Below, piece by piece: positions 592 to 55,130 of a stretch of DNA of 64,000 nt (its first letter is position 1; the number at the start of each line of letters is the position of its first letter). The stretch covers positions 33,083,626 through 33,147,625 of the forward strand of contig CM074516.1 in assembly GCA_037379345.1 (NCBI GenBank). The letters run 5' to 3'. This DNA comes from Perna viridis (lineage: Eukaryota). The notes below the pieces were generated by a model. It did not search any database. It was given only the letters and a program-made list of their open reading frames with translations, and had not been told where the DNA came from. Both the position numbers and the translations under genes were made by a program.

Positions 592-681
592 CTGGATTTT
601 CTCTCCAAACAGAGAGCAACTGCCGAAGCTGGTATCCCCGTAGCATAGGTAGCTAGGCGGCAGTAAGAACCTGTAAGTTTT
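592..681 (-). CDS. TMEM135: TMEM135 coding exon 3 (gene presumably continues beyond the left edge)
   Basis: tttcAG acceptor, GTATTA donor, 90 nt, phase 2 at both ends. Encodes (R)KLTGSYCRLATYATGIPASAVALCLERKS(R) (human: [31 protein letters not shown]). I could not find exon 4 in 1-590. Confidence 0.92.
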
Positions 682-972
682 CTGAAAGCAACAAGTCGAT
701 CCAATTTTTTTTTTTTTGGTATTTCTACATGCATCTTGAAGCAAACAACTCCAGTCAACCCACTGACCTATTTTCTTTTTCCTTGCTGACCAGTCAGTAA
801 TAAAAATGGTCATGCAGAAATCCACAAGATTCAATTTTGGGTTTAATCAAACAAAATATTATGTGACTCCCAATGTCCTTGCATTGCAAATTAAAAACAT
901 TGTTTTCCTAAAAGATTTACACAAAGCTTTCCCAAAACAATAGCAGAGTGTTCTTTGTACATTTAAACATTA

Positions 973-1171
973 CTGCAAAAGTACTATTGTTAGTGGGGTA
1001 CCAATTTTCATGGTTTTCATGGGAAGGCCAAACCACGAAATTTGGTTCCCAACAAAAAGGAGATTTCTTTGATACTGAAAACATTAAAACCATGAATTCA
1101 GGAATCCACAAACTTTTGTTTCTTCTCTTATCAACGAAAATTGGTATCCACGAATTAAAGTACTTTCACAG
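973..1171. mobile_element. Tc1/mariner-type MITE (~200 bp) in TMEM135 intron 2
   Basis: TA on both flanks (971-972, 1172-1173). Imperfect ~40-bp TIRs: CTGCAAAAGTACTATTGTTAGTGGGGTACCAATTTTC versus the reverse complement CTGTGAAAGTACTTTAATTCGTGGATACCAATTTTC. Confidence 0.75.
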
Positions 1172-1439
1172 TATTTCATTACAAATGCTAATAAAGTATG
1201 TGTCAATCTGTGGGAATTATTGTCTCATATGCATTTACCTCCACATATTTCTATTTTAGACAAACTGAAAAATTTATGTTGATAGGAATAAAAGTGAACA
1301 CCAGTGAGAGTGCAATAGAGAAATATTTCAGACATCCAAGGATTTAAGAATATTTTTTATTTATTTAAACTAAATATTTCAGATCCATTAGTTCAGCTAT
1401 GACCATTTATAATTATAAGAATGTGAACGCCTGCTAGGC

Positions 1440-1801
1440 ATACACTCACTTGTACAGGCAGTTGATATAATACAGCAAGCAAAATTACAATATACACCTT
1501 ACATGAGACCACAGACTAAATTTGAAATCAATCCAACTACTGGAAGCTGAGATTTTTATGATGAAAACTGTCTGAATCTTTCCATATTGTGAAAAGTGGC
1601 ACAGAACAGGAAGTTGATATCTGACAGCACCAAAAATGGCTTGCAACATTTGCCTCTTCTATACAAAAATACACAACAAATTTGAAATCAACCCATGCAT
1701 TGGGAGCCAAGATGATTGCAACAAAATTCAGATGGAAAGAGGCAATGACAGATGGCCAAGGTGATCAAATATACCTACCACTCTATGAGTGGGTGTATAA
1801 T
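1440..1801 (-). mobile_element. Degenerate Helentron-associated (HINE-like) non-autonomous element
   Basis: Two diverged ~160-bp units (tttgaaatcaa at 1521 and 1681) and a terminal hairpin atacctaccactctatgagtgggtgtataa. The left boundary is approximate. Confidence 0.45.
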
Positions 1802-2017
1802 TTAATTATTGGTATATTAATATGGATTGGTTTGATTTAAATGTCAATTTTCAAGAAAATCAGGGGCAAACCTATCATTAGCTAGAAAATAACAATGTTT
1901 TTATGACTTTTGGTCATTATTTCCTAAATTGAATGCATGTAATAAACTGATTCATGGAGCTGCACAGGAAAAACTATTTACTTTTCTTGCTTTTAATAGT
2001 AGTTTATGTAAATCTTT

Positions 2018-2172
2018 GTACATATGTAAATACATATTCATGTACACATATAAAATGTACATATACATGTACACATATAAAATGTACATATACGTGTACA
2101 TATACAAAATGTACATATAAATGTACATATACAAAATGTACATATAAATGTACATATACAAAATGTACATAA
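2018..2172. repeat. TGTACATATA-based micro/minisatellite (~29-bp higher-order period)
   Basis: Repeating tgtacatatacaaaa/tgtacatataaa units. These produce the spurious CTY/MYI ORFs. Confidence 0.9.
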
Positions 2173-2252
2173 ACATTACAACAAGATCAAACTTTCAAAT
2201 ATAGTTTCATTAGACCTCAATATACTCTATCTTCTCAGTACTATAATGTTAC

Positions 2253-2380
2253 CTCCATACACAAAAAAATGTGATAAAAAGAGTTCCATTAGTTGTTAAG
2301 AAGACCACAGATCTGGAAAATAGGGCTGGATACGACTTCATAAAGTATTCTTTGTTTTTTCCTTGTACAACTCCAGCAAT
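2253..2380 (-). CDS. TMEM135: TMEM135 coding exon 2
   Basis: tttttcAG acceptor, GTAAC donor, 128 nt. Encodes IAGVVQGKNKEYFMKSYPALFSRSVVFLTTNGTLFITFFCVWR (human: [43 protein letters not shown]). In frame with exons 1 and 3. Missing from the ORF track. Confidence 0.93.
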
Positions 2381-2549
2381 CTGAAAAATAAGGACATATT
2401 AATTGATAAATGTACATGGAAGCCTGACATCATACAAAATTAACATGTACATTGTAGTGAAATGTGTAAGGTATATATAGCCAGCCTTAATCAGCTGCGC
2501 TAGGGTGCTAACTCTTAAGCTCAGTCAGTTAAGGCGCTGACTATCTGTT

Positions 2550-3090
2550 TAATATATGTGCAGAAACAACTGGCCTGAAGATCAATGCTGAGACACAGTT
2601 GATGATGTTTTATACTGAGGAAGTATGACAAGCTCTAATAATGGCATCACAAAAGATCTCAAGGCCACATTATCCAAAGCTGGATCAGTCTTCGCAAGAC
2701 TTCAGCCCATCTGGAAGTTAAAAAATTATAGTAAAAGAATCTGCTATATTGGTCAAAGCGCAGATCTAGACTTGATCTGCAGAAATTGGATGTATTTCAA
2801 AACAACTGCTTCCAACGAATATCTTGGCCATAGAAGATCAGAAACAAGGTGCAACCACAGAACTTAAAAAGAGACAATTATTAAGATGGTTGGGCCATCC
2901 ATTTGCCAAATATGGCAAAATGACAGACTGCAAAAGGTGACTTTCCAATGGTCACTTCCAGGGAAAAGAAAGCAGGACAGGCCCTGTACCACCTGTAGAA
3001 GAACAGTTCTGTCTGAGATACAGGAGACACTAATCATCTTGGGACAAACACAACATGTAGCAAAACAATAGAGGATAATGTAGAAATCAT
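2550..3090 (+). mobile_element. Decayed RTE-clade LINE, 3' RT fragment
   Basis: Frameshifted peptides GLKINA, KDLKATLSKAGSVFARLQPIWK and DRLQKVTFQWSLPGKRKQDRPCTTCRRTV resemble the RTE C-terminal GKRxxGRPxxTWRRTV region. Confidence 0.75.
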
Positions 3091-4149
3091 GCTCTTCATA
3101 GTATCATTTCTAAGCATTCATTTATTCCCAGGCCATTGTAGCACTGTGCTTTGCACTGCTATCAATTTTAGCACTATGTTATCTGAAATGAATTGTAGTA
3201 AGAATGCACTATGTGCCATAATTTGGAAGATAAACTTATAGAGTTGAGCTTCGCCAGTAAGCACCATGCTATTTTTCAAATTTATAAGGAAAACAGAGAC
3301 ATTGTATCATGATAATACATGTACATGTACAAAAATGTACTGAGTAGATGTAATACTTTCTGTGTGAACAAAATGTATAACAAATATGATGTATATGATA
3401 AAGTATGTACAAAATCTTTAACCCCTGATTTTTCAAGGCTTTAAGCTGAGAGCTGCTATTTACACACACTACCATTGTAACGTCTAAGCCACTAGCCTTG
3501 TGCCAAGCTCTGTCAGCTTTTCAAACAGTCTCACAAGTTTTGTCTACCAAAGAAAAATTTAACAACAATATCTACCAAAACTTAAAATTTTATTGTACCT
3601 TGTTGTGCTAATGGAGACTACCATTAGACGAACAAAATGAATGTGATAAACTGTAAATGTGTATGTACATTTACTAAACCTGCCAGTCTGAACTAGATGG
3701 AGCTAAGTAAATGCTGTAAATCTATTGCCTCATGTGAAAATACATTTCTATATACAAATTGTACAATAAGGTCAATGTCAAATCTCAAAATCTTGCATAA
3801 ACTGAACTTGGCAAAATAATACATCATTACATTCCAAATGTAGACAATATTAATAAAAAATTCAGCCATTTACATTGCTCTCAACTTATTCTCAAGGTAG
3901 GAAAGCTTATGCTGTTTCTCCCAATAAGACAAAACCTCAACTGATGTATGGTGAGTGACTTGTTGACACTTTGGTCTTTCTTTTAAAAAAGGCTTATAAG
4001 TATTGTTCACAATTTATTTTTTTATCCAGAGTGCTACTGTGGAAAGAATTGAAAAATGAAAGACAGATTTGTATTTAGTTTGCTACATTTGTGCTTCTGA
4101 GTATATTATGATGCATATATATTATCAAAATTTTCTATTGTGTGTTATG

Positions 4150-4365
4150 CAGTGTTCTAGGATTTTTCAGAAAAAGAGGTTATCTCGGGAAAAATCCATA
4201 TAAAATCAACTTTCCCACAGTCAATGACTGCTTTCCTAACAAAACAAATCCTTACAGCATATGAAGTTTTCAACTTGCCACGGGAAAGTGTAACTAAGTA
4301 CCTAACTTTCCCTGATCCAAATTTCACTTGCCTGGGTAACGGGAAATTGGAATCCTAGAACATTG
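4150..4365. mobile_element. 216-bp MITE with 14-bp TIRs and a 6-bp target-site duplication
   Basis: Ends CAGTGTTCTAGGATT and AATCCTAGAACATTG. GTTATG lies directly on both sides (4144-4149, 4366-4371). Confidence 0.75.
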
Positions 4366-5597
4366 GTTATGGTATTAAAAAAAAACTTATTTCAGTGCAG
4401 GAATAGTTGAGCATTATATTTTGATCATTGTTTTTCCACTAAAAAGGCTTTCTGTTGTAAAAATTGTACTCTTTACTCTATACATGTGCACTTCCTCTGC
4501 ATTTCAATGGACACTTATTGTGAATTCAAATAGGCATGAGGAGACTTACAAGCCTTTACCTGGTATCACAACTTCAATGGCATTACAGTTTAATGGGTGA
4601 TAAAGACTTTCCTTCTGACTATTCTTTTTGACAAACTGCCTAGATTTTATCAGTTCAGTTACATGTATTTTATCATTACCTTCATTAACAACCATTTAAG
4701 TAATGTTTCATATTTCATGTACATTTCCTCACATTAAAGGACTGCCTTTTATTTTTGCTGTACATGCAGAAATTATTCATTGCATTTTGTTTCCCTTCCT
4801 GCCTTCAATTTTGGCAATGGCCCTTGTCCATACATTCTTGGACGGGGAGCATCTTCATGACAGAAATGTCCCATTCCTTACAGAAATATTGTCAAACTTA
4901 TCTGGTGTCTGGTGCCAAAGTCGATCAGTGATTTTTCAAGGTTTTGTCATTATAATGTAAATATTCCATCATTGCATGTGTTAAAAAGTACTTCGATCAG
5001 TGCTAATGCATGAGATGTTCTTCAAATTTGACTTTCTACAAAGTAGGACCACTGTGAATTGACATGTTTCACATGAAAGGATAAAATCGTCTGACCAAGA
5101 CTTACTACCTTGTGATTGCTGTCTGGAATGGCAGCATTATGACTTAAAATGTACCAAAACAATCTGTCTGGATGTGCAAAAAATAATCTTTCAAGTTTGT
5201 TAAATGTATATTTTTTCTTCTTAATTCTGAATGGTTTTTAATCGATATTTGTTACATCAGATACGATTGACTCAAACCTGATGTGTGGACGATTAGCCTT
5301 TAGAGTCTCCCCATCCACGAATGTATGGACGAGCATATCATAATTATTTTAACAACAGTCAGAATGATTTAACTCTTAATCTTCTCACTGTAAGTTTAAG
5401 ACTTCATTAGAAATCTTATAACTGAAGTATACACAACACAGCCAGCATGAAGCAATCAAAAAGAACCCGTTGTCTAAGGGCTAAAAACCGTTTCCCCCAT
5501 TGAGTAAAAGACTACAACCGATCAAATTGTTACTACAGAACAGATCAAAGTTTACGTCTTATCAGCATCCAGTTGTCAAACAGGATTTTACACTCAC

Positions 5598-5750
5598 AGC
5601 ATATAAAGAACCATATATTTTAACTGCTTGCTTAAACACCTCCATCATTACATCAAACGACGCCTTTTTGCATGAGGGTGTCCATGTATGACCTAGTTCA
5701 TAGCAAGAACAAGTTATTTTATCGGACAAAAGTTTGCCGAACACCGCCAT
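5598..5750 (-). CDS. TMEM135: TMEM135 (transmembrane protein 135) coding exon 1
   Basis: Encodes MAVFGKLLSDKITCSCYELGHTWTPSCKKASFDVMMEVFKQAVKIYGSLYA, matching the human TMEM135 N-terminus as I recall it ([23 protein letters not shown]...LKIYAPLYL). 153 nt, followed by a GTGAGT donor in phase 0. Confidence 0.95.
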
Positions 5751-5786
5751 ATTTGTTTGGTGTCATGTGGGTTATCAACCGGAAGT
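5744..5786 (-). promoter_or_regulatory. Housekeeping-type TMEM135 proximal promoter motifs (ETS/GABP site; YY1 site overlapping the ATG)
   Basis: CCGGAAGT at 5779-5786, about 30 bp upstream of the ATG. CCGCCATATT (YY1 consensus CCGCCATNTT) at 5744-5753 spans the start codon. Confidence 0.55.
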
Positions 5787-7565
5787 AAACAAAAGCCATG
5801 CTACTTTCACTTTCGTTTAACTTAAATTGCATGTTGTTATAATTTAAAGACCCTTTATATACGATCTTTACCGAACTATGCACGGAACGCTGTATTTGAT
5901 AGTTTATTGTGTAGTCCATGGTCCATTTTCCCTCGAACTATAACTTCATAATGTATAAAACTACAACTTAATAACAATATCCGACTAGAAAGTTTTTAGT
6001 TAAGAATTATTCAAATACAAAGTCTGGTACCTCGACTGATTTAACACTTGGCCTAACATATTGTCTTTGAAAGACGGGATCCAGGGGATTCTGGTGATAT
6101 TTAATAAGCAAAATGATCAAATGATAGCTTATAATCTCCTTTTTTTTTAAATATTTGGATCAGGGCTTGGATGATCCATTTTGGGTCTAAGCTAATTTAC
6201 AAGTACATATGTGAGGTTTCTATCGAAAGAAAAGAAACGAAACAGTGCCGAATCGAAATGAAACCAAACCGTTTCATTTCGTGTTTTAGGCAATTTTGTT
6301 TCGTTTCTTTTGCTTCGTTTTTTATTGGAAAAGTTGTCATTTTCATGTGTAAAATTGATTAAAGTGGTAAATAACGTACTAGCAACTCCCCCTTTTTTTC
6401 TTAGGGACCCCGGCTGGTACCCATCCTATACAAAGTGTCTAGATCCGCCCTGTATGCTATCTAGAATCTTTCTCAAAATACAGTAGATGGTATAGAAAAT
6501 GGCTGTTCTTTATGTCAATGAAATGGAAAATATGTGTAGCTGCATTCCCGATGGGAATACATGTATCACCATGAATGAAAACGCTGTTTAGATAATTCAC
6601 AAATACAAAACTTAAACATCTCCAAAATAAATACATGTATCATCAGCGTATTTTTACTTTTTTTCAAATTGTTATAATTTTATTATAGATAAGCACATTT
6701 AGAAAATATGCTGAATTATTGTCATTTTGAAAATTAATATATTCACAAATCCAATTCAGATTCTAGTCCCACTTATAATGTTACCGATAAATCTGGACTA
6801 ACTGATATAACAACACGGTTTGTTTAAAATTTTAATGTTGGAGTGAACACAATACAAAATGTTAAAATGTTTGATTACGAAGAAGATATCCCCTAAAAAT
6901 TAATCTGAAAAGTTTCGTGTGGTAAAAATTGTGAGTGTTAATTTACATTCCATGCGATAATTTTGATCGAGCCAGATACATGTATTTTACCGAACAACCA
7001 TTATTCCCTCCTAACAGCCATATATTGCAATTTAGCAAAAATATGGCCAAAAGTTTCGAGGCGCATGCGAAATGCTCTAACTAGAACTGCAGAGGTTGAA
7101 TTTGATAATTGAAGCAAAACAATACCGGGCCTTGCTAAATGAGAATTGCATTGCTTCAGCTTGCAAAGTATACACGTATGTCAGTGGGGAACTGAACAGG
7201 GGATTCGGGATTATAAAAATCTGTTGTATTATATAACATTATGTATAACAGATCATTGAAGATGTGAAAAAATAACTAAGAATCATACAAAAACAAACGG
7301 TACTGCAGAGTAAATGACCCAAATCCGGGCATCACTAAACGATTTCAAAAGATCATTATACTATACAAAAAAATAGCACTGTTATTCATTTGTTTTAATT
7401 ACTCAAACCAGAAGCAAGAGAAAATTCCTTACAATCTAGTTAAAATTGGACCCATTAATTGTACCATTCAGTTACTGCATTGAAATTCCTTACTAAGTCA
7501 AGAACCGAAACAAAAAGAAACGGTTTTCGAAATAGTAGTTACTAAAACGCGAAACGAAACTTTCG

Positions 7566-8460
7566 GTCGGCATTCCAATAGGAACAAATTGTGCTCCTTT
7601 ACTAGCTGACCTATTCCTTCACTCTTATGAGGCTGACCTTATAGCTGATCTGATCAGAAAGAAAGAATATCGTTTGGCTAGATCCTTCAATCTCAGTTTC
7701 CGCTATATAGATGACGTATTATCTTTAAACAATCCCAATTTCGGGGATTTGATATATCGCATCTACCCAAAAGAACTTGAGATAAAGGATACTACAGACA
7801 CTGTGAAGTCAGCATCATATCTTGACATACACTTAGAAATCGATGGTAAAGGAAAACTATTAACCAAACTTTACGACAAACGTGATGACTTTTCATTCAG
7901 AATTGTCAACTTTCCTTTCATCTGTGGCAACATCCCTTCGGCTCCTACGTATGGAGTGTTCATATCACAACCCATACGTTATGCCAGAGCTTGGCGAAAC
8001 TACGCAGACTTTTTGTATCGCGCTAGAACTCTAACAAATAGGCTTCTGGAACAGGGTTATGTTGCTACAAGATTGAAGTCATCACTACAGAAGTTTTATG
8101 GTCTTCATCATGAACTCGTGGATCGTTATGGTGTATCCATCAGCACCGTGAAAACTGATTTATTCAACGGGTCATGGTTTTCCTTTCCTCGTTTGTCTAC
8201 CCCGGATTTGACTTTTTATGAGAAACTCGGCGGGTGTTGCTAGAAAAGCAGAGGACGCTTATCCTACCGGTGCACCTGGTCCATGCTCCCAGTTTTTAGT
8301 GGAGTCCGAGTTGCTCATTTATTTTTGTTACTTCGTATATATTACTTTAGTTACTTTATGTTCTTTATTGTGTATGTCTGTTTTCCATGTATGGTCTTTG
8401 TCCCTGGATTACATTCTTTTGATTACCGCTATAACCTTGGTTCCCTTGATTACTCTTTGA
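7566..8460 (+). mobile_element. 5'-truncated Penelope-like retroelement (probably Naiad-type): RT C-terminal half plus 3' region
   Basis: Uninterrupted frame 7566-8243: VGIPIGTNCAPLLADLFLHSYE...FRYIDDVL...SASYLD...TKLYDKRDDFSFRIVNFP...YGVFISQPIRYARA. It has the PLE RT motifs and no C-terminal GIY-YIG domain before the stop, consistent with the permuted-domain clade. Confidence 0.85.
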
Positions 8461-10859
8461 AATAATTGTCCCTTGTACATATATTGTTTATCTTTCTGTA
8501 GCTGTTACACCTTCTCGTAAGTAAAAACTTTGATGTATATACCCGTTACTGGTTTCATTTCAGAATAGCAGCATTTATAAAAATGGAACCTGTCTTGGCG
8601 TTGGACTGTTATGCCGGAAGGATATATACGTTCTTTTATTTTTGACCAAAAAAGACACATGCTTACCGCATATTTATCTGAATGGAAACAAATGCCAAAT
8701 CAAAGGAACTAAAAATGACAGCTATTTGAAAACAAAATGTGTATTTATCATAATCCTTCAGATTTTTAGTTTGACATCGGAAGGAAATGACAAATAAAAA
8801 TAGAACTGTTCTAGGATGCAATTTACCAGGAATGGTGTTACTGCTATCTATTTGGCTGTCTTGCCAAGTGATAAAAAGCTAAATGTTATTTTAAAACTAG
8901 ATATATCTAGGATTATATGTGAAAAGAGTTGTATGTAGGGCTTTAAAGTGCATGGTTAGCGTTTCCATCATACCTGATTGTTAAAATATTCGGCGTTTAT
9001 GTTAATGAAAGTGTCTCTGTACTTAGGTGTCCAGAAACTACGCACTTTTACATGATACAAAAAAGTGTCTATGCGACAATGTGTAGCATTTGAGCTTTAT
9101 ATAGCTTATCATTAGCTAGATGAGAGGTGAAAGAATTTCGTGCAAATTTCGATTTTCGTGCAAAAATTTAAAGACAAACTGAATATCATCATAAATTTCA
9201 ACTTTGTTGTATCCAACTCTTTGATTTAAATTCACAATTCTGATAACGAAATGAGTGGATCACACTTCTTTCCTTTGATCTCATCCCTATTTTTTTGCCA
9301 TTTGACGATTATTTGAGGCCTACAAATTCAAACAATCGATATAAATTTATTCAGTACTTAAGTAGCAGTCCGCCTAAGAATCATGCAATTTTCACTGAAA
9401 GTGATTTATTGATGTCCGACATTTTATCCAAATTGACTTTAAATCAGTTGGATATATAAGAAAAACAATGAATAAAATGAGAAAATGAAAAATGATTTCA
9501 CCGTTATCATAGCAACAACCACGCCTTAGCAACCACCAATTTAGGGCCTAATAATCACAAAAATGTCACAATTTGAATGTATTTTTTATATCTAATGGTG
9601 GAAATTTACCAAACTAAATAATTATATTAATGAAGTGTGTCTTATGGAAAACAATTTACAATAAAGTACAAAGCAATCTGATTGGATAAGATCTGGTTAC
9701 CATAGCAACCAAATTTCTCAATTTTTGACAATTTGAAATATACAAAAATAGGCTATGTTCAGACCCGTTTTGCTAACAAGAGCAAGAAGATATTATCCAA
9801 ATATATGCATGGATGTGTAGTAGATGCTCTCCACTGAAACATATCAAAAATAAAAATATGTAACATATCTTTGTTTTTTGCTCATTTGGACCTTAAATCG
9901 CCCCCATAAAGACTTTTCTTCTTCTTAACGCTTTTCATACAAACTTTGTCCAGACAATAACTTTTTTGTCTTTTGACTTAGACTTCTAATATTTGGTATG
10001 TTGGTATATCCTCTCGGGGCAAAGTGTCGTGTATCAGAGTGGGTGACCTTTGACTTTGACCTTTAACCTCAAGGTCAAATAACATACATATTTTGGCAAA
10101 ATATGATACAAAATTTTGTCTGTGCCATTACTTTTTGGTCTTTTTACTTAGATATCTGACCTGTTTGACATTTAAGTAAATTACAGTATAATGTAATTAT
10201 ACTTTAAAGTATAATGTAAAGTTAAAGTATAATGTGCTAGATTAGATGACATTGGCCTTTGACTCCAAGGTCAAATGACATTCAAAATTTTTGCCAAATA
10301 TCATACAAAACTTTGTCCCGGCTATAATTTTCTTTTGTCTTTTTACTTAGACATCTGATATTTGGTATGGGGTATGTTTTCTCAAGGCGAGGCGCCTCGT
10401 ACTAGATTGGTTGACATTTGAACTTGACCCTTGACCTCATGGTCAAATAACATATCAACTTTTGACTTGATGTGTTAATGAGGACAGATGTCATATGACT
10501 GATACTAAATTGTTTTTTTTTATTAATTTCTGAATTTTGAGGGAATTCAATCAGACCCAAGACTAATATTTCTTGTTTTTGTTTATCAACTCTTGACATT
10601 TTATCCCACTTCCATTTTTTAACTCCTGTTTTACTGAAATGCACATCTTATCAAAATGTCCCAGGATTACATTCTTTTGATATCCGCTAGAATTTTGGTT
10701 CCCATGATTACTCTTGTAAACATGAACATGTAGGTTCTTGTTTTCAGAATATTTCAAAATGTTTTATATTTTTTTTTGTTTAAACATAATGTCACAAAAA
10801 ATGGCTATGAGACAGGCTAAGTTAAAATTAACTGAATAGTCAAATGCAGGAAACGCTTT

Positions 10860-13172: not shown

Positions 13173-15843
13173 TATTCAAGCTCAGAGTTCTTTTCCTTTG
13201 AAATTAAGAGAACACATATTCCATAACAGATGTAAAGGATTGGTACTTCAGGTTTTATAATCCCATACCAAATATCAGATATCTAAATGAAACGACAAAA
13301 CAATTTTAGCCCAGACAAATTTTGTATGGTATTTGGCCAAAATTTTGTATGTCATTTTATCTTGGAGTCAAAGGTCCAGGTCAAAAGTTATCCTATCTTG
13401 AACATTACACTCTACCTTAATGTGATTTACTTACATACCAAAAAATCAGATATCTTGGTAAAAAGACAAAAAAAAACAAGATGGCCAAGACAAAGTTTTT
13501 ATGGTATTTTGCCAAAACTTTTATGTTATTTGTCCTCGCGGCCAAAGGTCAAGGTCAAAGGTCACCTACCTAAAACATTACTCCCTGCTTTGGTGTGATA
13601 TACTTTAATGCCAAAGATTATATATCTAAGTAAAAAGACCAAAAACATAATGGCACAGACAAAATCATGTATCATATTTTGCCAAAATTTGTATGTTATT
13701 TGACCTTGAGGTTAAAGGCCAAGGTCAAAAGTCTCCCACTCTGGTATGCAACAATCTACCCTGAGAGGATATACCAACATACCAAATATTAGAAGTCTAA
13801 GTCAAAAGACAAAAAATGTTATGGTCTGGACAAAGTTTGTATGAAAAACGTTAAGAAGAAGAAAAGTTCTTACAGGAGGTGATTTTGGGTCCAGATGAGC
13901 AAAAAACAAAGATATGCTACATTTTTTTTATTTGTGATATGTTTCAGTGGAGAGCACCTACCACACATCCATGCATACATTTAATTAATATCCTCTTGCT
14001 CTTGTAAGCAAAACATAGGGTCTGAACATAGCCTATTTTTGTACATTTCAAATTGTCGAAAATTAAGAATTTTGGTTGCTATGGTAACCAGATCTAAACC
14101 AATCAGATTGCTTTGTACTTTATTGTAAATTGTTTTAATATAAATTGTAATATAATGATGTAGTTTGACAAATTTCCACCATTAGATATAAAAAATACAT
14201 TCAGATTGTGATGCTTTTTGTGTTTTTTAGGCCCAAAATTGGTGGTTGCTAAGGAATGGTCGTTGCTATGGTTACGGTGAAAACATTTTTCATTTTTTTA
14301 TATTAATTCTTGTTTTTCCATTAAATCCTTCATATTGCAAGTCAATTTGGTTCAAATGCCTGACATCGATAAATCACCTCCTGCATGATTCTTAGGTGGA
14401 CTGCCTTTAAAATACTTTGATTTTGATTGTGTTTTTGTGTTTGTTTTGTTTTTGTCTTGTTTTCATATATTTATTGTTAAATGTGTTAATTATGGTAATT
14501 TAGAACAAAATACGAATTGAAAATATCTGATGTGTGGACCGGATACGACGAATATTTTCGCAAAATTATGATAATGTCAAAACAAGTAGGTATAATTAAC
14601 TTATGTTTGGTCTAATTAAACTGAACTTATTTTTCAATGTGACAAATTATATGTAAAACAAGTGCTGTGATATCTTGTTAAAAAAAACATGACTTTAAAA
14701 GTCATCTCGATGAAGAGTATCGCTGTATCGAACTCCTTTGATCCCAGTGGTATGACTGTTTTATATTGTAGATGCTTTTAGCAAACAATAACTTTACCTC
14801 TTTCGTTTTGAATGTTTGAAGCAATCAAATAAAATCAAGTACAATATAAAATATTTATCGTAATTTATTTTCTTGACTCTTTCAACCTAATTGTTTCTAA
14901 TCTGTCGTATACCGCGAGAAGTAATATCAACATATAAAGCCCTGTAGTAACATTTGGTAGCATTCACGTGTTAGTTGTTCTGTAACGTATTGTTATGGAA
15001 AACGCATAGAAAAGTTTTATTTCTTTCTGAATAGCTCCAAAGACCAAAAAGAAACACCTATGTTTCTTAATATCCCTGATCATATTGGAACGTTTTTTAA
15101 CTAATGTCAGAATAGGAGTAAAGCATTGTCGGGCACTAATCCCCTTAATTAGTAGGGAAGATGTTTTCTTTCCTAAGTAATCCATCAAATATAAAATATG
15201 CAAATTTCTGGATGAATTCGGTGGTTATTATAAAACCTCTTATCATAAGTATCGAAACCGACTTCTTTCAGATTACGGAAATATCATATGAAATTAATTC
15301 TAATACCTCCTCTGTCTTTCTGTAGAATAAAGGCAAAAGATTGCATGTAAACGTATTTAAACTGGAAAACAGGAGAAAAGGCAAAAGTAGCACTTGCCGT
15401 GGAAACCACAAAGCTTATGAAGGAATACGGACTTTTCGTCGGATGTTAAAGAACATCAAAGAAGCTAAAGTCCTTTTGATTTATGTCTTAGAATAGAACA
15501 AAGTAAACTTGTACGGGAAAATCCAAAAGGAGACGAAAACAGAAACAATGCATCAAATGGTTAGATGGTAATTGAAAAAATGGAAATGTGAAAATCGGTA
15601 AAAGTCTGTAAAAAGAATGGGACTTTGGTTTTGTGTTTATGGTTTGAAGGTTCCTTTTCATGATCATTCGGTTTCTATATCTATCATATGCCATATTAAA
15701 CACTCCTTTTAATTTCTTAGAAGTGGAAGGTCTATTAATGTCGTGAAAGGATAATTATAATTACTTTATCTTGGATAATAATAATATTTTTTTCTGTTTT
15801 GTTTTCCATGTCGGCCGAGTACTTCGGCTAGAGGCTGGCTAAC

Positions 15844-16021
15844 AATCTATCTTCTGAAGTCGGTACCATCCTAAGTTAAAGTATGCAGGAACATACTTCC
15901 AATCTATCTACTGAAGTTGGTACCATCCTAAGTTGAAGTATGCAGGAACATACTTCCAATCTATCTACTGAAGTTGGTACCATCCTAAGTTGAAGTATGT
16001 AGGAACATACTTCCAATCTAT
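15844..16021. repeat. 57-bp minisatellite, ~3.1 near-identical copies
   Basis: Units start at 15844, 15901, 15958 and 16015. Confidence 0.95.
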
Positions 16022-22400: not shown

Positions 22401-25014
22401 AGAGACCAGTCTGTTTTTAAGACGTGTATCCGAATATATACATGTACGTGTCATATTTAAAAATCTTCTATTTATGGTTTTCAAACGTGCAGGGTTTTTA
22501 GCTTCAACTATTATGTTAATTGCAGTCAATTAACAACCCATGTTCTTATTTATTCTTTTTATATTCCTTTGATTATATCTAAATCGCACCTGTTACCGCT
22601 AGATTCTTATTGAATAAGTATCGTTGTGTTGGTCTAAATAAATTGAATACGGAAATTTATTTTTAAAAAATCTGACCTAACGCAAAAATAACCATTGTTG
22701 ATAACAACAAAAATTATCAAAACGAGGGAATAAATATGTACAACAAATTTCTTGGTACGACACAGTCAGTCATAGGATCAAGAATGACCTCATAGTAAGA
22801 TGAATTGTCAGTTTTTTTTCCCATTTGCCATCATTATCATGTCCTAAAGAACAAACAAACTTCTATATACATGCACCCAACTTGTTTCAATAAAATATGT
22901 ACTTCTAAAATACGTACATGATAAATTACCAAAAAACAATTACATTGTTCTAACAACGAACATTCAACCATTGGCATTCTTAGCTTATCTGGAGGTCAAT
23001 CTAACATTTAAATAGAATGAAAGAAATGTCGAAATGGGATCCAACTCATAACGAGCACAGACAAAAGATACCTTTATGAAAAACAGCCCAACGTTTACTA
23101 GAATTATAGATTTTACACCTATTTCGTCTGTACATAATAATCTGACGTTGTCAAAATCTGTATCAGATGGCCTTCGCCGTGTCAAACCCGGGTATTTATT
23201 TGCACATAATTAATGATCACGTGATCATATGATTTGATCTGTGACTCTGGGGGTCGCTGGAAGTTTTTGACACCTGTGATTGTAATGAAGCTTTATTAAA
23301 TTGATTACCTTAAAAGTAAATGACATTTTAATGACTTTAGTTTCGAAGAGATATCTAGCATGCAACGACATTTTCTCAGGGGAAAGAGCATGACATTTGA
23401 AGTTTAACACTGTCATTCGAAGAACTGTACACAGTCAAAGCGAAATTAAGTGAAACAAAGTAATAAATAATAAAAAACAACAACTAAACAAACAAAATGA
23501 GTAAGATATTTGTGAAAACCCACAATTCTTTTATAGGGACAGAACACGATGCAATATGGCACGAACCATTAACATCCTGACTGATACCCCGGTTCACAGT
23601 GTTTGCCAGATACATCATATGGCTATACAACTACATGTAAATAGCATCCAATGGACCATTCCCAATGACACCACAACCTCATGAAATTTAAGCAGTAATT
23701 AAGGCAAAGACGTACCATTTAGAATTAAGCATAGGGACACAATAACCAAGTTTTAAGAGCAGTTGATCAAAGGAAATTCTGCTTGAACTACGTATACAGT
23801 CACAATTTGGGAGTAAAATGGAGAAGTCACCAGTTTCAAAGATGAACAACGTCAAAGCAACCAAAATTGAAGAGCAGTAACTCAGTGCATCCATAGATAG
23901 AAGGATGCCCACAAAGATATCTATATCTTTATTTGTCAGTGATCCAAAGTTAATCGGGAAACTTGTGGAAACGAGGCATCACATAAAATCATTTATCCCG
24001 AAACTAGGCTTTTTACTATACAGATTCAGAGTGTCCATTGCTGTATTTGTATACACACGTTGTTCTACAATATCGTCTCCTGTTTAGCATTTTTAATATC
24101 TAAAGCAGAAACAGATGAAAAAGATTTAGGGATGATTCCGAATACGTCTAATTATACATGTAAGAAATGGCATAAAAATGATACGACATTCTGCGTATAT
24201 TGAAGATGTTTCATTATTTGCGAGTTATACGATAAAAATAAATGTATTAAAATTGCTGCAATATATAAAGTTCATTTATACTTGCCACAAAAGCGACAAA
24301 ATAGCTGACTGTTCTAAAACTCCAACAAGAAGATTTGATACTTATACAGATACCTATGAAAACGAAATCATAATAAAGAATAAATACATCAATGAAAAAT
24401 TCAAATGTCAAGGCAAACTGCTGTAACCAAACCTTAAAATAGAACTTTCTCCTTAACGTATAATATTTGGTAATGAAATGACATTACTGTTTGATAGCGC
24501 ATGCTGCCAGATCATATATATGTACGTGTGTTTACCAGACACTTACACACATGTCAAAATTGATTTTTCCTAGTACATATGTATTGAAAATAAGTCACAA
24601 AAACTTGATTTGTTGTTTTTTTTCTGTCTAAAATACAACCGTCTCCATTGAACGTTCCACGAAATATTAACAGATGTGGTCTATGTTTTCCATGTTTAGA
24701 ATTATTTCGGATGCCATTAGAAGACCAAATGAATTATATTTGTTAGTTTTGGAAACTAGCAAAAATTTTCCGGTGCCCTTCTTTTAGATGCAGCCCTCTC
24801 ATATGATTGATACCGCCCTTGTTTTAATTACAACTCATACTCTGATGAAACATTGAGAAAAAAAGCACGAATGTATGATGAATAATTGATGAATGTTTGG
24901 AAGTAAATATGATCTAAAACAAATACATTCCGAAACAACAGCAATAGGAAATATAAATAACTTGTTGTTAATTGAGACATATCATATTATGCACATGTAT
25001 ATATCATTATAAAG

Positions 25015-32500: not shown

Positions 32501-32624
32501 AGGAGATTTACAAGCATTCGTACACCAATGACTGATAGTATATTTAGGAGATTTACAAGCATTCGTACACCAATGACTGATAGTATATTTAGGAGATTTA
32601 CAAGCATTCGTACACCAATGACTG
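32501..32624. repeat. 45-bp tandem repeat, ~2.75 identical copies
   Basis: aggagatttacaagcattcgtacaccaatgactg at 32501, 32546 and 32591. Confidence 0.95.
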
Positions 32625-32866
32625 TATATTTCTTTATTAATTAAAATAAACAATAATCTGGAACAAAACAATTATAATAGGATGAAGCATTAACATATTC
32701 AGGAATTTGTTAAATCTACTTCGAAATCCAAATTTTAAACAGTCTGCTTTGTCAATAATTGTACAGCTAGACATCGAATAAAGATTCAAATTGAAAAGTT
32801 CTTTGGAATATTGGGTCCTTGAGAGTTAAAGCAAAATACATTCCTATTGCATTAGCAGTTACTTAA

Positions 32867-33079
32867 GGAGGTAGACCTAGGGTAAGAGAAACAACTCTTG
32901 CAAATCATTGGAACGTTTGCATTCACCATTTTACATTGCCTTCATGTAAGCATCAAAGTAACTTGAAGTGATTTTAATTCTGTTTCAAAGGAAAGCTTGA
33001 AAGGCTTGGGTGAAATTGAATATGATACAAACATATGGCTGATGTCAAAAATTATGTTCCTTATCCTTGGTCTACCTCC
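32867..33079. mobile_element. 213-bp Kolobok-type MITE
   Basis: TTAA at 32863-32866 and 33080-33083. 20-bp TIRs GGAGGTAGACCTAGGGTAAG / GGAGGTAGACCAAGGATAAG with RR...YY termini. Confidence 0.85.
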
Positions 33080-47500: not shown

Positions 47501-50500
47501 TCTCAAATGTTTTTAATTTGATTGTGTAAAATTTATGCTTTTTCATTTAGTTTCATGTGTCAGGCGATTAAACGCTTTCCTCCCTAATATTTTCTATCTT
47601 ATTGTGTGGCAGAATGTTACGTAGAATTTTTCACTGTGTACAGTTAATCGTTTTTATGAATGCATTCTTGTTTCAACAGTGATAAAAGTTAAATATGTTG
47701 CAATATTTTTATTTTGGCTGTTATCGAGAGTGTAGTTAGTTCACCCAATATCAAATGACTCCATCAGATGTAGTTAAGTAGACATAACTACATATTTTCG
47801 TGTATAAAACAACCATAACAGTTTTTAACAGTGTTTTCTTTCATTTCAATGTTTTACATACTTGTATTAATGAACTGAAACGAATTAACCGCTTTTTCGA
47901 AAATCAAGTCAAGAAATTGATTCCGAAAGGAGACATTAACTGGCCTAAGAGGCCCACTCCACTGATTGTCAATTTTCTACTTTATAATCAACCATAGTTC
48001 GGCCGCCTATGATTCAGAAAGGAAAAATTTTGTTTCACATTTCATGACCCATCGGCGTCAAAAAAGTTCATCGATAAAAAAATACTCTTTCTTCTTGATT
48101 GTAAATTAAGAGGACGGTAGATGCACATAGTACTGGTCAAAGGTTGTAATTGAATCAGGATATGAATTACGTACGTTGTGTTTGGGTATAAGACCATCTG
48201 GGAAATAGATAAACCGTCCTGCTTCAAAGCGCGGGAAGCCATAGCTGTGGTGACGTCGATGACAACAATTTTGTTTGACGCATTTAGGCATGTCGGACAT
48301 GCATGAAGCATGGACAGTCAGGTAAATGTATGACTTTCTACGTCAAATCAATGTGTTCTTTTATCATAATGTGGCCAAAAAAAAAAAAAAGATATCAGTG
48401 CAGACAAATTAAAATGTGCTACCATTTCTGGTGTTCTAGAATCACTCGCCATTCCACTTTTAACAATGATGGTAGTTGTGCAGTTATATAGTTGCTACAA
48501 AACTGTCGAGTCTATATGTTCAAATAAATTATTACCCAATTGTTTGTAGTTATAAAATATAATAGGTAGCCATTAAATCGTAAAATACTGATGATCATAA
48601 AGATAAATTATAGCCCTTGAACAGGTCTTAAACATCTTAGCTAAGTTATGAGGATGGAACGGAAGTTGAATCAGACCAGGCTGATAAAACCCATCTGACA
48701 TACCTAGTATATTATATCAATTTTGGGGTGGACTCAACTCGATAGCTCGTTTGAGCTTTTGTGACACAAGAAGGACGTTAATGTATAGCTTGGGGATAGC
48801 TTGATTTCGAAAGACTAGAACATTCTTAATTTTAAACTTATTTCTTACACTGAATACATTAAGACCGTGATTAATTTTTAGTTAATGATTGTTTGTAATG
48901 TACATTTCGTACTGTGGAAATAGCAAGTTCTTTAGTAAAACGCGTATAGCCTTGGCTATAATCATCCTTGATAAACGAAGAAGGCATTTGTTGAACAAAA
49001 TTCTCAGGCTGAGGGGTTTGAGTATTAGGTTTAGCAATCCTTCAGCTATTCTACCCTTTGAATGACTTCTACCGAGGAAAAAAAAATCAAAATTTTTATA
49101 ACAATATTATAACATCTTATATTTCGTTGCAAGTATAATTAAAAAAAATAATACTTTGGCACTTCATATAAGAGATACGTAGAATATAACTCAACATATT
49201 CTTTCCATGTTCTGCACCCATAAAACCCTAAACAAATTTGACATTCTACACCCCAAACCAGTCAAACGGACAGATGGAAAAATGAAACTTACAACCGTGA
49301 GGAAGAAATCGACATAACCTGTCAGTTATTAAGGCTACGTTTGCCATGTTATAAATATGTTAAATGGATAAAACAGATTTTTCTATCAATTAAAGTGACA
49401 AGAGGAACTTACTGGTTTTTAGGGCAAGCTAAAAGCTTGTTTTTAAGCAGTAACTAGTTCCATAGTAATGCATTCATGAGAATTTCACAGTATGGAAACC
49501 TAGTCAAAATTCTTGTCACTTCATACACGTAGAAAAATATTTCATTGGTTAGTAAATGATTATACTATATATTGAGATTGTATATAAAGTGTGGTTTATT
49601 ATTTTTTTCATTGAACATTTTTAAACATGAAGTTAATGATTGTTAATGCTTCTATATATCAATCCCTTCTTTAAATCAGTTTTTGTAAAGAAAAGAGGTC
49701 AAATCAAAATGAACCACCTGAAGTTATTCATAAAAATTTTACATCGAAACAACAGAAAATGATACCAGACCTAATATTTGGCTACATGATTTTAGCTGAC
49801 AGTTTAATTTAACTCAACCAGATCTATGTGTGTATAGTAAAACTTCGTCATACTGAAGTAAATTCATAATTTATATTGACAACATGTCCCAGAGTGCGAT
49901 TAAAACATAAGTGTCAATTATTGTAATTCATATTTTAAAATGCCCATTCAAATAATGAAAGAATGACTATAATATTTCATCAGTAATTCATTTCAATTAA
50001 TATTTCGAGATGACATGAGATTTTAAGACATGATTTGGAAAGCTGCTATAGCATATTGAAATGTATTTAAAGACACAATTTTTACAACTTCATAATTCGG
50101 TTAATGTTACAATAATTCATTATGACATTGATAGAAATAGAGATTCAAATCTCCATAAAATTGATGACATCATTATTGTTAAAATCTGTAATAACATAAT
50201 TATTGATGATTATTTCGCATTTAAGGGATTAAGAGTTGACTTTGTTAGGGTTGCGAATTAACTAAACAAGCAGGAAAACTTAGAAGACACTTTTTTTACA
50301 GAAAACAAAATGTCCTATTAACTTATGAAGGAAGTTTTACTGATAGGAGTACTGTTGATACAATATGAATGGAAATGTGTATCTTGGTATAAAATACGAG
50401 GCCATAGTAACCCTTCATCGTACAGGAAGTATTAACTTTTAACATCTAATGTTCATCATTTTCACAGAGAATTTTCTAATCCCTTTGTTTACATGTAACA

Positions 50501-53342
50501 TATTTTTCTAATTTCAGCTGTACTTGAGAATTACAATCTGGTGCTTAGACATAAAATTGAAATTGGATATTTTTTTCTGAAGACTAACTGGGGGATCTTA
50601 TTTACACCTAGACTCTGTTTAGCTTTACCAACAGATAAAACCCCTAACATTCTAAGTGTGATGTGCACAAGCTGGCCTTTAAATTAAGATACTGTAATAC
50701 TTATTTTTCCAATCTATATATTAATCATGTTAACATAAATATTTGAAAATTATATCCACTAAATCCTATTTCTTTATTGTATTGTTGTAATCTCGAACCT
50801 ATACAAAAATAATAAATATCCTATTCCTTGGCCCTTTCAGCGGGGTTCACAAAATTGTTAGTTCAGTGAGTGTACGGGCGTCAAAAAAGACACCTTAGAA
50901 ACAACACATTTTCGTGGTTGGACAGAATCAACTTTGGTTTTAAAAAGACTTGGAAAGGTAACAAAAATAATTCTACTAGTCCCAGTGACACCAGGTGTGT
51001 ATTAAAGTACTACTCAAATTAAAAATCATGCATTGAATGATCAACGACTTGGGCAATTTAAAAATTTTCATCAGAGTTGGGACAATTACATTATAGCAGT
51101 CCTAGATAGCTGAATCAATTATGACATGAAGTATCTGAAGTTTCATCTTCATTAAAAGGGGATAAAGCATGTTAATTGTGTAAATAGAATAACATTTTTA
51201 AATTCCCCTAGGTTTAAAGTAATCAAACTATATATAAAATTATTTTCTCAACAGAAAAACAAGGAGTCTTTAAACCTTTGAAAACTACTTGAATGCATGA
51301 TTTTTAAACTAAGTAGTATTTAAACCATTAATAATAGCAACCTATTATATTCTATAAGCAATACATTATCTAGTGTCAACATAATCTGATACTGAACCTT
51401 TTCCATGCCTGTCCCAAAGGCTAAAGCAATAATTATATCTGTTTAAGGTTTCTGTCTACATTTTCAGTGGTCCTAACTTGTAGAGAATCATATCTTAATT
51501 TATAAGTACAAGTATATAAAGACTTGATCCATTATATCTAAAGTATCATGAAGAAATATATGACAGACACTGGTGAAACTCAGAAAAGATAAGCCATAAA
51601 CTAGACCACGTTTTGTCAAGTAGTAACCTTAAACAGACATAAATGTTGACTTGGCCTTGCAAGAGGTTGAGATTTTGGGTATGCTAGAAAAACTAGTAGA
51701 CAAAGATCATTATTTTGACATATTTTATCTTTGACCATAAATAACAAGTTAAGGCAAATGAACAATAATTCGGGATATTGAACAATGTGAAAAAATGAAA
51801 AATAATAACATAATATGCGTTCTGGTTGAACAAATGACAAATGATAAGAAATTATTTATGGGATCATAAAACAATACCAACATTTTAAGCTGAACTTTTT
51901 TCATTACTTCACAGAACTGTCTCGGATTACAGGTAATAAACGTTACTTATCCAATTTTCACCTTTTTAAAACTGGTTTTAACATTTAATATAATCTAAAA
52001 GTTAGAAAACAGACTAAGTAGCAAAATAGATTGATTAAACCATGCCTAAGACTTTTTAAATTAAATTGTTTTTCAAATTCATCTGCATATTTTTGTATTT
52101 ATGAAACCAAGTTGTTCCAAGTGATGTAACCTTTTAAAACCAATTATGCCATGTAAGAAATTACTCTGATTAAGACCGTCTCTAAATCCAGGGAGGGAAC
52201 AGTTTTGACTCCAAACATCTTAACAAGAAAAAGTAGATAGAAACTGTCTGACAAATCCAATTAAAATACTTTTTCAAAAATTGGTTAACTTCTTGAATCA
52301 ATCATGCCGATGAAGAAAACGGTTCTGACGTTTTACAATCTTTCATTTGTGGCGTTGCTCAAGCTTAAATTCCCAAATGAAAACAATTTTACACAAACTG
52401 CACTTAATAAACTAGATAATTTGTTTTGTGTAAATAAACTTGATTTACAACGAAGTTTTTATTCAGATGTTGCAATTATTGAACCTAACGTTCTTATTTG
52501 AACCAAGAATTCTACTCTAAATTCCAAAATGTATTGAATATAATGTTGAAAAATGAGTCCTATTGATTTCCATTACTAAGTAAACAAGGGAATGAAAAAT
52601 TAGTCAAAATTCCATTGAATCTTGATAAAACTTGCAATATTGACAAACTCGCAAGACAGTTTCTAAAACAAAACCTGTTAAAAATTTCCCCAATTTTACG
52701 AGTTAAACATGGCATGTATGTTTATAACTAGATAATAAAGACCTATTACCCCACAGTTCTGTTCAGTAAATACAGTTACACTAAAAATGCATCGCATACC
52801 ACAGCGCGAGACGGCTAGATTAGATTTCAAATCTTCAGGGAGAACTTAAAGAGAATTTTTTTTTAACTTCGTTAATGGACTTGCATGTTATATACTGCCA
52901 ATCTCTAAAACACAAAATATAAATGTCAGTTACAACCAAGAAAATGCGGTAATAAATCTTTAACGAAAACTCAGCTTGAGACCCTTTCCTGTTTTTGTTT
53001 TTCTATAACATCCATATGCACATTTCCCGCTGCTTGGTAGTATGATTTTAATCCTAAAGATTTTTAAAAGATGAACATTTTATCATGAATGAAGGAAATT
53101 TGAACACAATCAACTCAATGAGAAAAGCTTTGATTTGACATAATTTCTCGTTATAAAGATAATACACACACAAAGATTACCCTTTTTCTAGTTTTGTTCA
53201 ACACACATATGTTGAATCGAGTATTTCACACAAAATACGTTTAACAAATATGCGACATCACAAACATAAATATAGCCCAGCCGTTTTAACATAACGTAAA
53301 TAACAACAACGCAACTACGTTATAACCTTGTAACGTAGGTTT

Positions 53343-55130
53343 CTATACTATCGTCTCACTATCTGCTTTAATGTATCGTTTCGTTTTGTCCACTCTAATT
53401 GCCCTGTTCTGTTGTTTAACTGGAATTTGTTGGTAGTGATGTTGTGGAACGGTGTACTCGTAATGTTTTCGTTCAGGTTTTTTGTTGGAGCACAATTTTC
53501 CTACGAAATTTCGCCACGAGTTTATTGTTTTCGTGCACCAAATCCACATACCACTAGTAATTCCTACGACTAAGCACATGAATATTTTTAACATAAAAAT
53601 TTCAATCTTTGGTGAACTATTGGGATAATATTTCGAATACCACGATTCTCTGTTTGTGTATTCATAGAAATAACATGCAATTACACATGCAGCTGGAACT
53701 GTATATAAGACGGAAAAGATCCCTATTCGGACCATAAGCACTTCCAATTTATCTGTTTTCACCCCATCATTCCTTACTTGTTTTCTGATTCTAAATAAAG
53801 CTACAAATCCCGCGACTAGGAAAGTTATTCCAATAAAGAGGTAGACTAGTAAAGGCGCTATTACGAAACCTAACAATGTTCTTGGGTTTTGGTTTCCTAC
53901 GTAACAAATACCAGTCAATTCGTCAGCATCAACGTCTCTCATGACTAAAATTACGATTGTTTTAATTGCTGGTACAGCCCAAGCCGCTAAATGGAAGTAA
54001 CTACTATGAACTTCGATGGCCTCATGGCCCCACTTCAGTCCAGCGGCTAGAAACCATGTAAATGTCAAAATGACCCACCAGAGTGAGCTTGCAGTTCCGA
54101 AAAAGTAGAGTAATAGAAACACTATAGCACAATCCGTATTCTCTAGTCCCTCTTGAATTAAAATCCCTAGGGAATTCTGTGGGTTGGTGACTGATGGGTC
54201 TGTATCACAGGCGATGGATTCTCGTCCTGCAATGAGTCTTACAATAAATGCAATACTAAAAACATTGAAGCACATTGACAGAAAAATTATAGGTTTCTCC
54301 GGATAACGAAATCTATGCGTCTCGATGGCATACGTTAGTATTGTAAATAAAGTGGATACAAAGCACAGCCCGGCCCAAATAGCCATCCAAATATCGGCGA
54401 AGTATTTGTCCTCGGCAGTAAAGGCGTCGTCATACCCACACTGTAATGCACAACGGTCAGTTCTGTTGATGTACGTGTACATTTTGCTATGTTTATAATC
54501 CATACATTTTAATTTACTTAGAGTGTTCCAGTCTGTGTGAAGGGACGGCATGAGCTGAGTTGGGTAGATTCGATTTCCCCCAGGTCGCAGGTTCCCAATG
54601 TTATTCTTATTACCTCCTGGTTGGTTCCAAGGAGGGATGCCTCCTGGTCGAGGCCGACGGGTTGGAACATCGTCTTCTTCTCCTGGTCCATCCATACACA
54701 TGTTATTTTGATCGTTCTTTGGTGGAAATTTTGAGCAATTCAGTGCCGCGGGCCACGGAAAACCAAACTCATTTAGAACTGGCCTGCATCGTTTCTGAAC
54801 ACTGAGACACATAGGTCTACATGGCCCAATAGGTTCCATAACTTTTTCAGTACACATTGGAACGTATACAGAACACAGAAAAAATTTCAGTTGCTTTGAG
54901 CACCCGTATTGAATCAGTGGTGTAAATGTTTGAAGTTGAAGCTCTGCATCTTGTTGTAAATCATGTCCGACTAAATTCGGCATACCCGTAACGTTATATC
55001 CCAATCCCTTACACATGTCTATTCGGATAGGGTCACATTTCCTGACGATTTCGGTCCCAAATGAATAAAATCCCTTCGGCAGGAGTGCACAAATAAAGCC
55101 TGTCAGCACCACACGTGTTATGAATTCCAT
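53343..55130 (-). CDS. FZD4: Frizzled-4 Wnt receptor, 595 aa, intronless CDS
   Basis: Hydrophobic signal peptide from M(EFITRVV) in a GCCATGG Kozak context. The 10-Cys CRD ([47 protein letters not shown]...) is very close to vertebrate FZD4. 7TM domain with [12 protein letters not shown] and [12 protein letters not shown], KTxxxW motif (KTINSW), and PDZ ligand ETIV (human FZD4: ETVV). Confidence 0.97.

Follow-up and report, generated by a model that had tools for sequence, protein, structure and literature searches.

The locus and its question

Why should the gene for a Wnt receptor and an unrelated gene lie side by side in a mussel as they do in human, and what, if anything, has held them there while one of the two appears to have changed strand? 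The question is raised by a stretch of 64,000 nucleotides from Perna viridis (GenBank assembly GCA_037379345.1, contig CM074516.1, positions 33,083,626 to 33,147,625 of the forward strand; hereafter the window, numbered from its first letter), in which Frizzled-4 (FZD4) and the 5′ part of TMEM135 both lie on the minus strand. They stand in tandem, with FZD4 upstream and 47,592 bases between the TMEM135 ATG and the FZD4 stop codon; the 5′ end of TMEM135 points toward FZD4, and the 3′ end of FZD4 toward TMEM135. A sequence-only reading of the window had reported these as the only two genes to be found, adjacent and with three exons visible for TMEM135, and open reading frames (ORFs), Pfam, splice sites and tblastn bear this out (Table 1). 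The analysis indicates that an ancient and widely kept FZD4–TMEM135 pair is real, and that a regulatory mechanism and a flip of FZD4 may explain its retention and its present orientation.

Identity of the two genes

The product of the FZD4 ORF matches the Fz domain (PF01392, E 2e-33) and the Frizzled seven-transmembrane (7TM) region (PF01534, E 5e-127) in Pfam, and carries the ten invariant cysteines of the cysteine-rich domain (C32–C145). Against solved structures (PDB), the full-length protein scores 701 bits with FZD4 versus 475 with FZD1, 462 with FZD5, 457 with FZD7, 319 with FZD3 and 314 with FZD6, and its cysteine-rich domain scores 218–231 with FZD4 versus 151 with FZD10; among the best 120 of 2377 protein matches, each row that carries a Frizzled subtype name is a Frizzled-4. 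The tree comprised 65 rows, namely the window protein, 18 FZD4 proteins and those 46 of 78 metagenome loci with an ORF of at least 430 amino acids, and four of its outgroup rows were assigned through PDB to FZD1/2/7, with none assigned to FZD9/10 or FZD5/8; in it, the window protein is nested within mollusc FZD4s, and the FZD4 clade (29 rows) has a Shimodaira–Hasegawa-like approximate likelihood ratio support (SH-aLRT) of 100. The protein also groups with pteriomorph bivalves. With the signature columns placed by our reading of the alignment, the protein has R at the position of G in the FZD1/2/7-like rows, a third outer loop without a cysteine pair, KTINSW and a terminal ETIV, to be compared with the 1C-R-0C, KTxxxW and C-terminal ES/TxV described for the FZD4 subfamily (PMC4669655). 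Best matches, tree and signature residues together identify the gene as a true FZD4, and the possibility that it might cluster outside the Fz4 clade is not borne out. Unlike the vertebrate gene, whose coding sequence has one intron, the mussel FZD4 is intronless.

The three other minus-strand exons are, by similar evidence, the 5′ part of TMEM135. The first two match the N-terminal region of the family in Pfam (PF15982), which gives no match to exon 3, and with Mytilus TMEM135 as the tblastn query exons 1, 2 and 3 are collinear at 81%, 63% and 45% identity, respectively (84% for exon 1 in a separate comparison). A GT donor follows each of the three exons and an AG acceptor precedes exons 2 and 3, the lengths of 153, 128 and 90 bases are in frame, and the boundaries of exon 2 are those of the TMEM135 segment spliced in a hamster gene model (P0093) discussed below. 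The remainder of the gene, with its C-terminal Tim17-like region, would lie beyond the left edge of the window. About 30 bases ahead of the ATG lies an ETS-like CCGGAAG (5779–5785), one of five such sites in the window; ETS-like sites are typical of housekeeping promoters.

Table 1. Features of the window, with positions counted from its first letter (L001, the FZD4 locus of a related bivalve among metagenome contigs; o/e, observed/expected; UTR, untranslated region)
Feature	Position	Strand	Basis
TMEM135 coding exon 3, 90 nt; gene continues beyond the left edge of the window	592–681	−	tblastn
TMEM135 coding exon 2, 128 nt	2253–2380	−	Pfam PF15982 E 2e-4; tblastn; boundaries
TMEM135 first coding exon, 51 codons (153 nt)	5598–5750	−	Pfam PF15982 E 6e-11; tblastn
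CpG-depleted TMEM135 gene body, o/e 0.17	1–5000		composition
Interval FZD4–TMEM135, 47.6 kb; no host gene found, not CpG-depleted, repeats and transposon remnants	5751–53342		Pfam, Rfam, composition
Assembly gap, 135 N	31109–31243		window letters; contigs of four runs
Smaller conserved block past the FZD4 stop	51317–51391	−	comparison with L001
Conserved block 1.5 kb past the FZD4 stop, distal UTR or enhancer	51677–51834	−	81% over 160 columns versus L001, E 5e-35
Conserved block past the FZD4 stop, probable 3′ UTR	52705–53230	−	72% over 569 columns versus L001
FZD4 coding sequence, intronless, 595 aa	53343–55130	−	single ORF, ATG to TAG
Conserved block upstream of FZD4, candidate 5′ UTR and promoter	55138–55868	−	76% over 750 columns versus L001 (alignment)
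Smaller conserved blocks upstream of FZD4	55969–56046 and 56076–56128	−	comparison with L001

Linkage of FZD4 and TMEM135 across animals

The age of the pairing was judged from protein records by two proxies, the equal size of the longest contig carrying each gene and the order of the record identifiers, which stands in for gene order and carries no strand; coordinates were read within the window only. Both protein searches name 17 lophotrochozoan species, and in each of these FZD4 and TMEM135 are on equal-sized contigs (Pinctada, Pecten, Ruditapes, Mactra, Mya, Dreissena, Patella, Littorina, Babylonia, Lymnaea, Biomphalaria, Octopus sinensis, Lingula, Lineus, Tubulanus, Owenia and Capitella; the Haliotis rows were omitted, as those for the two genes came from different species), and some of the shared scaffolds are small (Lingula 251 kb, Ruditapes 578 kb, Capitella 708 kb, Lymnaea 1.2 Mb). 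Cluster look-ups add contig-size matches in Acanthaster, Ptychodera, Glandiceps, O. vulgaris and O. bimaculoides. Identifier order could be compared in 12 pairs: it is consecutive in five (Patella SNE40_019485/6, Capitella ELU03626/7, Owenia CAH1798577/578-581, Lineus XP_064629514/515-517 and Acanthaster XP_022082154/155-156), one apart in Lingula and in the acorn worm Ptychodera, and in O. vulgaris it runs from a C-terminal TMEM135 model through the N-terminal model and six others to FZD4, the remaining four being far apart. Consecutive identifiers on one contig would be hard to obtain without adjacency.

By these proxies, the tight pairing spans molluscs, brachiopods, annelids, nemerteans, echinoderms and hemichordates, and published work extends it to vertebrates through mammals, human FZD4 and TMEM135 being neighbours at 11q14.2 that are co-deleted in people affected by familial exudative vitreoretinopathy (FEVR). 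As non-paralogous genes with, by proxy, at most four genes between them in at least four major lineages, the two count as a conserved ancestral microsyntenic pair (CAMP), and chance or convergence is very unlikely because shuffled genomes yield 0.015 pairs conserved in four lineages per genome (Irimia 2012, PMC3514665). The adjacency was very probably present in the protostome–deuterostome ancestor. The bilaterian ancestor lived over half a billion years ago, and the proposal, made from the window alone, that the pair dates back to it is well supported: the neighbours are not absent from intermediate taxa, and the survey agrees from molluscs to starfish and hemichordates, with two teleosts mismatching and an ambiguous picture in amphioxus.

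Those exceptions belong to a group of observations that speak against the favoured reading given below. The identifiers are far apart in 4 of the 12 comparisons (Tubulanus, O. sinensis, Pinctada and an amphioxus hybrid, 636 apart), although the distance in O. sinensis and the closeness in O. vulgaris suggest that far identifiers need not mean far genes. TMEM135 of Branchiostoma floridae is on a 120-kb scaffold of a size unlike that of the FZD4 contigs, the two teleosts present in both lists (Anguilla and Scleropages) show no contig-size match, and in medaka FZD4 occupies the tetrapod position of TMEM135 beside RAB38. Block 2882 of Robert 2022 (PMC8851819), an ACAT1-RBBP4/7-REPS-macro domain block classed as ‘Bilateria novel’, contains in Saccoglossus and Mizuhopecten a Frizzled whose annotation text is FZD4-like and which we infer to be FZD4; it is labelled FZD9 there, and no row among the 35 listed for the block is named TMEM135.

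In Ecdysozoa, look-ups turned up a millipede FZD4 and TMEM135 of Artemia and Daphnia, with no same-species pair; the one searched of four mytilid-like clusters yielded no Mytilus FZD4 accession, and a comparison of 22 TMEM135 proteins with the 78 metagenome Frizzled loci gave no match at E 0.01, which carries little weight since the ten FZD4-clade loci have flanks of at most 10 kb. Some TMEM135 gene models are fused to other sequences (P0275, P0285, P0349, P0381 and P0399), namely a 7TM receptor, ADAM proteases, MFS transporters (twice) and, in Ptychodera, a C-terminal domain without Pfam match. These are probably annotation fusions that reveal adjacent genes, and the G-protein-coupled receptor, ADAM protease or MFS transporter ahead of TMEM135 suggests other 5′ neighbours in some lineages.

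Orientation of the pair and the assembly gap

The human pair had been described earlier as head-to-head at 11q14.2. Its neighbourhood stands, through the FEVR co-deletions, as does an FZD4 5′ end that faces TMEM135, and with the strand of TMEM135 the mammalian pair is head-to-head. A mapped mouse interval takes in the whole of Tmem135 along with the 5′ part of Fzd4, and in human a glaucoma variant at chr11:87,035,111 lies 79,569 bases away from the promoter of FZD4; we take this variant to lie just upstream of TMEM135 and not inside it. The window is like the human 11q14.2 and mouse chromosome 7 locus in its orthologous neighbours, in a spacing of 48 versus about 80 kb and in the shared TMEM135 exon 2 boundaries, but unlike it in that the 3′ end of FZD4 faces TMEM135, whereas in mammals the 5′ end does. 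The order of the O. vulgaris models would also place the 5′ part of TMEM135 toward FZD4. What seems constant across taxa is the side of TMEM135 on which FZD4 sits, and what seems to vary is the strand of FZD4; the window is the sole invertebrate locus in which strand was read.

In the hamster model P0093 (MEJ1272794.1, Cricetulus griseus), TMEM135 exon 2 is spliced to the end of FZD4 on one strand, unlike the head-to-head pair of mouse, and the order in that assembly is therefore tandem. The model hints at a second flip of FZD4; a cell-line rearrangement or an artefact may also lie behind it.

The tandem orientation in the window depends on the join across the 135-N gap, because the two genes are on opposite sides of it. 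A mis-scaffold at this point had been named as a danger to the adjacency itself; with the linkage seen elsewhere, the join bears on orientation and no longer threatens adjacency. None of the listed contigs of four runs (at most three samples) bridges the gap, although a hole in contigs proves nothing: they end at 31108, as all those on the left do, or start at 31244. Just to the right, 31244–32500 has a 1,059-base contig in run X9 and low or no cover in the three other runs, and is possibly a presence–absence variant. The missing bridge and the low cover would suit a real linkage whose tandem orientation is an artefact, one side of the gap having been inverted or mis-joined, and such an artefact would be compatible with any of the mechanisms weighed below. 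We nevertheless regard it as improbable, since the non-round gap size suggests a read-pair estimate and not an arbitrary join, and a random mis-join would hardly recreate the neighbour of other molluscs with the 5′ end of TMEM135 facing FZD4.

A constrained FZD4 cassette and a long interval

Conserved non-coding blocks lie on both sides of FZD4 (Table 1). Since these flanks are 72–81% identical to those of L001, whereas four-fold degenerate sites of the two coding sequences agree at 36% (66 of 183; 29% is expected from composition), the flanks are clearly constrained, and on this comparison FZD4 with its flanks makes up a compact cassette, some 5 kb long, that is under constraint. In seven other, more distant FZD4 loci, the flanks gave no non-coding match to the window. 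Three clam-like loci (L002, L004 and L007) are 66–72% identical to one another in their upstream non-coding sequence, which has no match to the window. Downstream of FZD4, the CpG-depleted stretch at 49000–52300 (o/e 0.41) overlaps conserved blocks as well as AATAAA at 52463, 50778 and 49600, and may be a long methylated 3′ UTR. Wnt feedback through two TCF-like sites upstream of FZD4 was considered and rejected, as L001 lacks both sites and their density is close to background.

An intervening gene between FZD4 and TMEM135 is unlikely. A Pfam search of 150 ORFs of the window (the first 150 by position of 159 with a GC content of at least 34.5%, from 335 N-free ORFs of at least 50 amino acids) matched nothing but TMEM135 exon 1, apart from a single chance match at E 0.007, although short exons can escape such a scan, as the ORF containing TMEM135 exon 3 did in scoring nothing; an Rfam scan of the window gave no matches. 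The CpG o/e is 0.17 in the TMEM135 body and 0.82 where that gene starts, 0.81 from 7 to 49 kb, 0.41 from 49 to 52 kb and 0.88 in FZD4. Given the mosaic gene-body methylation of invertebrates, this contrast fits a housekeeping gene versus a regulated one, and would correspond to a methylated TMEM135 beside an unmethylated FZD4, the stretch between the two holding no further methylated gene body.

What may have kept the pair together

The reading that we favour, with about an even chance of being correct, is that the pair has been kept because FZD4 draws on distant control elements in the interval 5′ of TMEM135, within which the FZD4 cassette may flip. As a tissue-restricted developmental receptor (expression of Platynereis fz4 is stage- and tissue-restricted), FZD4 would use distant elements in this long interval, and its landscape would reach up to, and perhaps include, the TMEM135 promoter region. 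A break in the interval would cut FZD4 off from these elements and would be opposed, while the cassette of about 5 kb could flip in place and stay within the landscape; the flip would be tolerated because enhancers act in either orientation. It would give a head-to-head pair in mammals and a tandem pair in the window, with the 5′ end of TMEM135 facing FZD4 in both, and TMEM135 would be a bystander or boundary and not a co-regulated partner. One outside, indirect support for a regulatory explanation is a human promoter–variant loop, for which a promoter-capture preprint gives FZD4 as the candidate target of the glaucoma locus ‘TMEM135’. A bolder extension, possible but doubtful, is a bilaterian-wide block around a signalling receptor, more than 550 million years old and anchored at the promoter end of TMEM135, in which FZD4 would have flipped more than once and through which the human traits filed under TMEM135 (glaucoma, heel bone) would act via FZD4.

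Several points tell against the favoured reading. The human loop comes from a single preprint and is unvalidated according to its authors, and in invertebrates an enhancer or a contact is so far a postulate. Of the TMEM135 introns, the two in the window (introns 1 and 2, of 3,217 and 1,571 bases) are short and CpG-depleted. The conserved blocks, which come from a comparison covering the FZD4-proximal DNA of relatives, are all situated no more than about 2 kb from FZD4 and would move with the gene, so that they do not explain the linkage.

If the FZD4 enhancers were instead located in the TMEM135 introns, namely in the downstream ones beyond the window, the locus would be a classical intronic block, which would be in keeping with the very large introns of human TMEM135. 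Both visible introns speak against it, as does the human variant, which is 79.6 kb from FZD4 and, by the gene coordinates, just upstream of TMEM135. Such a block would accord with the Irimia/Kikuta model (PMC3514665), and the persistence of FZD4 without TMEM135 in medaka looks like the loss of a bystander that follows genome duplication; nevertheless, a TMEM135 that is dispensable after duplication also fits weak constraint, and the intronic block seems rather unlikely. Weak constraint in its pure form, that is, an ancestral adjacency of genes on one ancestral chromosome that survived in slowly rearranging genomes without selection, is also unlikely, if to be taken seriously. The species with tight adjacency do belong to lineages that evolve slowly, loosening or loss of the pair seems to have occurred in teleosts, possibly in amphioxus, and in the lineages with other genes fused 5′ of TMEM135, and a hemichordate and a scallop also keep ACAT1 close to an FZD4-like gene, so that the region may be quiet; neutral survival is, however, hard to reconcile with near-immediate adjacency in six invertebrate phyla and mammals when local gene order is otherwise almost fully scrambled (PMC3514665).

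Distinctly improbable, finally, is an ancestral head-to-head pair co-regulated through shared promoter elements that decayed in this mussel. Although no orientation is commoner or better conserved among ancient pairs than head-to-head (PMC3514665), and the 5′ end of FZD4 faces TMEM135 in mouse and human, the genes are in tandem and 47.6 kb apart in the window and about 80 kb apart in human, their CpG profiles are opposite, and TMEM135 has no entries in the supplement of Touceda-Suarez 2020 (PMC7530604), which includes 52 co-expressed head-to-head pairs. A bidirectional promoter in this genome was rejected, the genes being neither head-to-head nor a short distance apart.

Repeats and mobile elements of the window

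Two retroelement fragments, absent from the sequence-only reading, are not host genes: a truncated reverse-transcriptase fragment of 234 codons at 7539–8243 (plus strand; YIDD motif; Pfam RVT_1 only at E 0.076), presumably Penelope-like, and a 164-codon ORF at 61181–61675 (plus strand; only a weak unrelated Pfam match), which we take to resemble the C-terminal end of a long interspersed nuclear element (LINE) ORF2. Inverted arms of about 1.1 kb (9365–10464 and 13338–14404), 80% alike and with internal sub-repeats of about 170 bases, look like the remains, about 5 kb in all, of a foldback or DNA transposon. An interspersed repeat at 32860–33060 is of very high copy number, its summed contig depth exceeding 10,000 in each of the four runs, and tandem arrays occur at 2031–2180 (period 27), 15843–16021 (57), 24999–25542 (26) and 32501–32624 (45).

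Relation to known systems and significance

Irimia 2012 (PMC3514665) catalogued 595 CAMPs of unrelated genes, many of them read as regulatory blocks. The excerpts of its main text name neither FZD nor TMEM genes and its 595-pair supplement was outside the search; FZD4–TMEM135 may well be in that list, in which case the linkage was already known. Titles, abstracts and passages yielded no text on the pair outside vertebrates; further facts on the vertebrate locus and on Frizzleds come from bioRxiv 10.64898/2026.03.12.711121 (PMC13015409), PMC8306649, 10.1101/2021.09.22.461410, PMC12294924, PMC6470186 and PMC6408821. The pair resembles ancient genomic regulatory blocks, such as those of Otx and Islet (PMC3514665) or the 156 pairs of Touceda-Suarez 2020 (PMC7530604), in joining a regulated developmental gene to a bystander, in its long gene-free interval and in that a copy has lost the bystander once the genome had duplicated; it differs from them in the short visible introns of the bystander. 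The 2020 definition requires a transcription factor and FZD4 is a receptor, so that the earlier description of the pair as a developmental regulator with a housekeeping bystander fits in the broad sense of a restricted Wnt receptor, not in the transcription-factor sense.

FZD4–TMEM135 is thus a new-looking example of a known phenomenon, and its weight is limited by the approximately 600 ancient pairs already catalogued and by a mechanism that is only proposed. If constraint holds the pair together, it would mark the site of a Wnt-receptor control region since the bilaterian ancestor and offer a natural test of the inversion of a target gene inside its regulatory block. If true, it would also lend evolutionary weight to the view that FZD4, the FEVR gene, is the target of the human variants that map to TMEM135.

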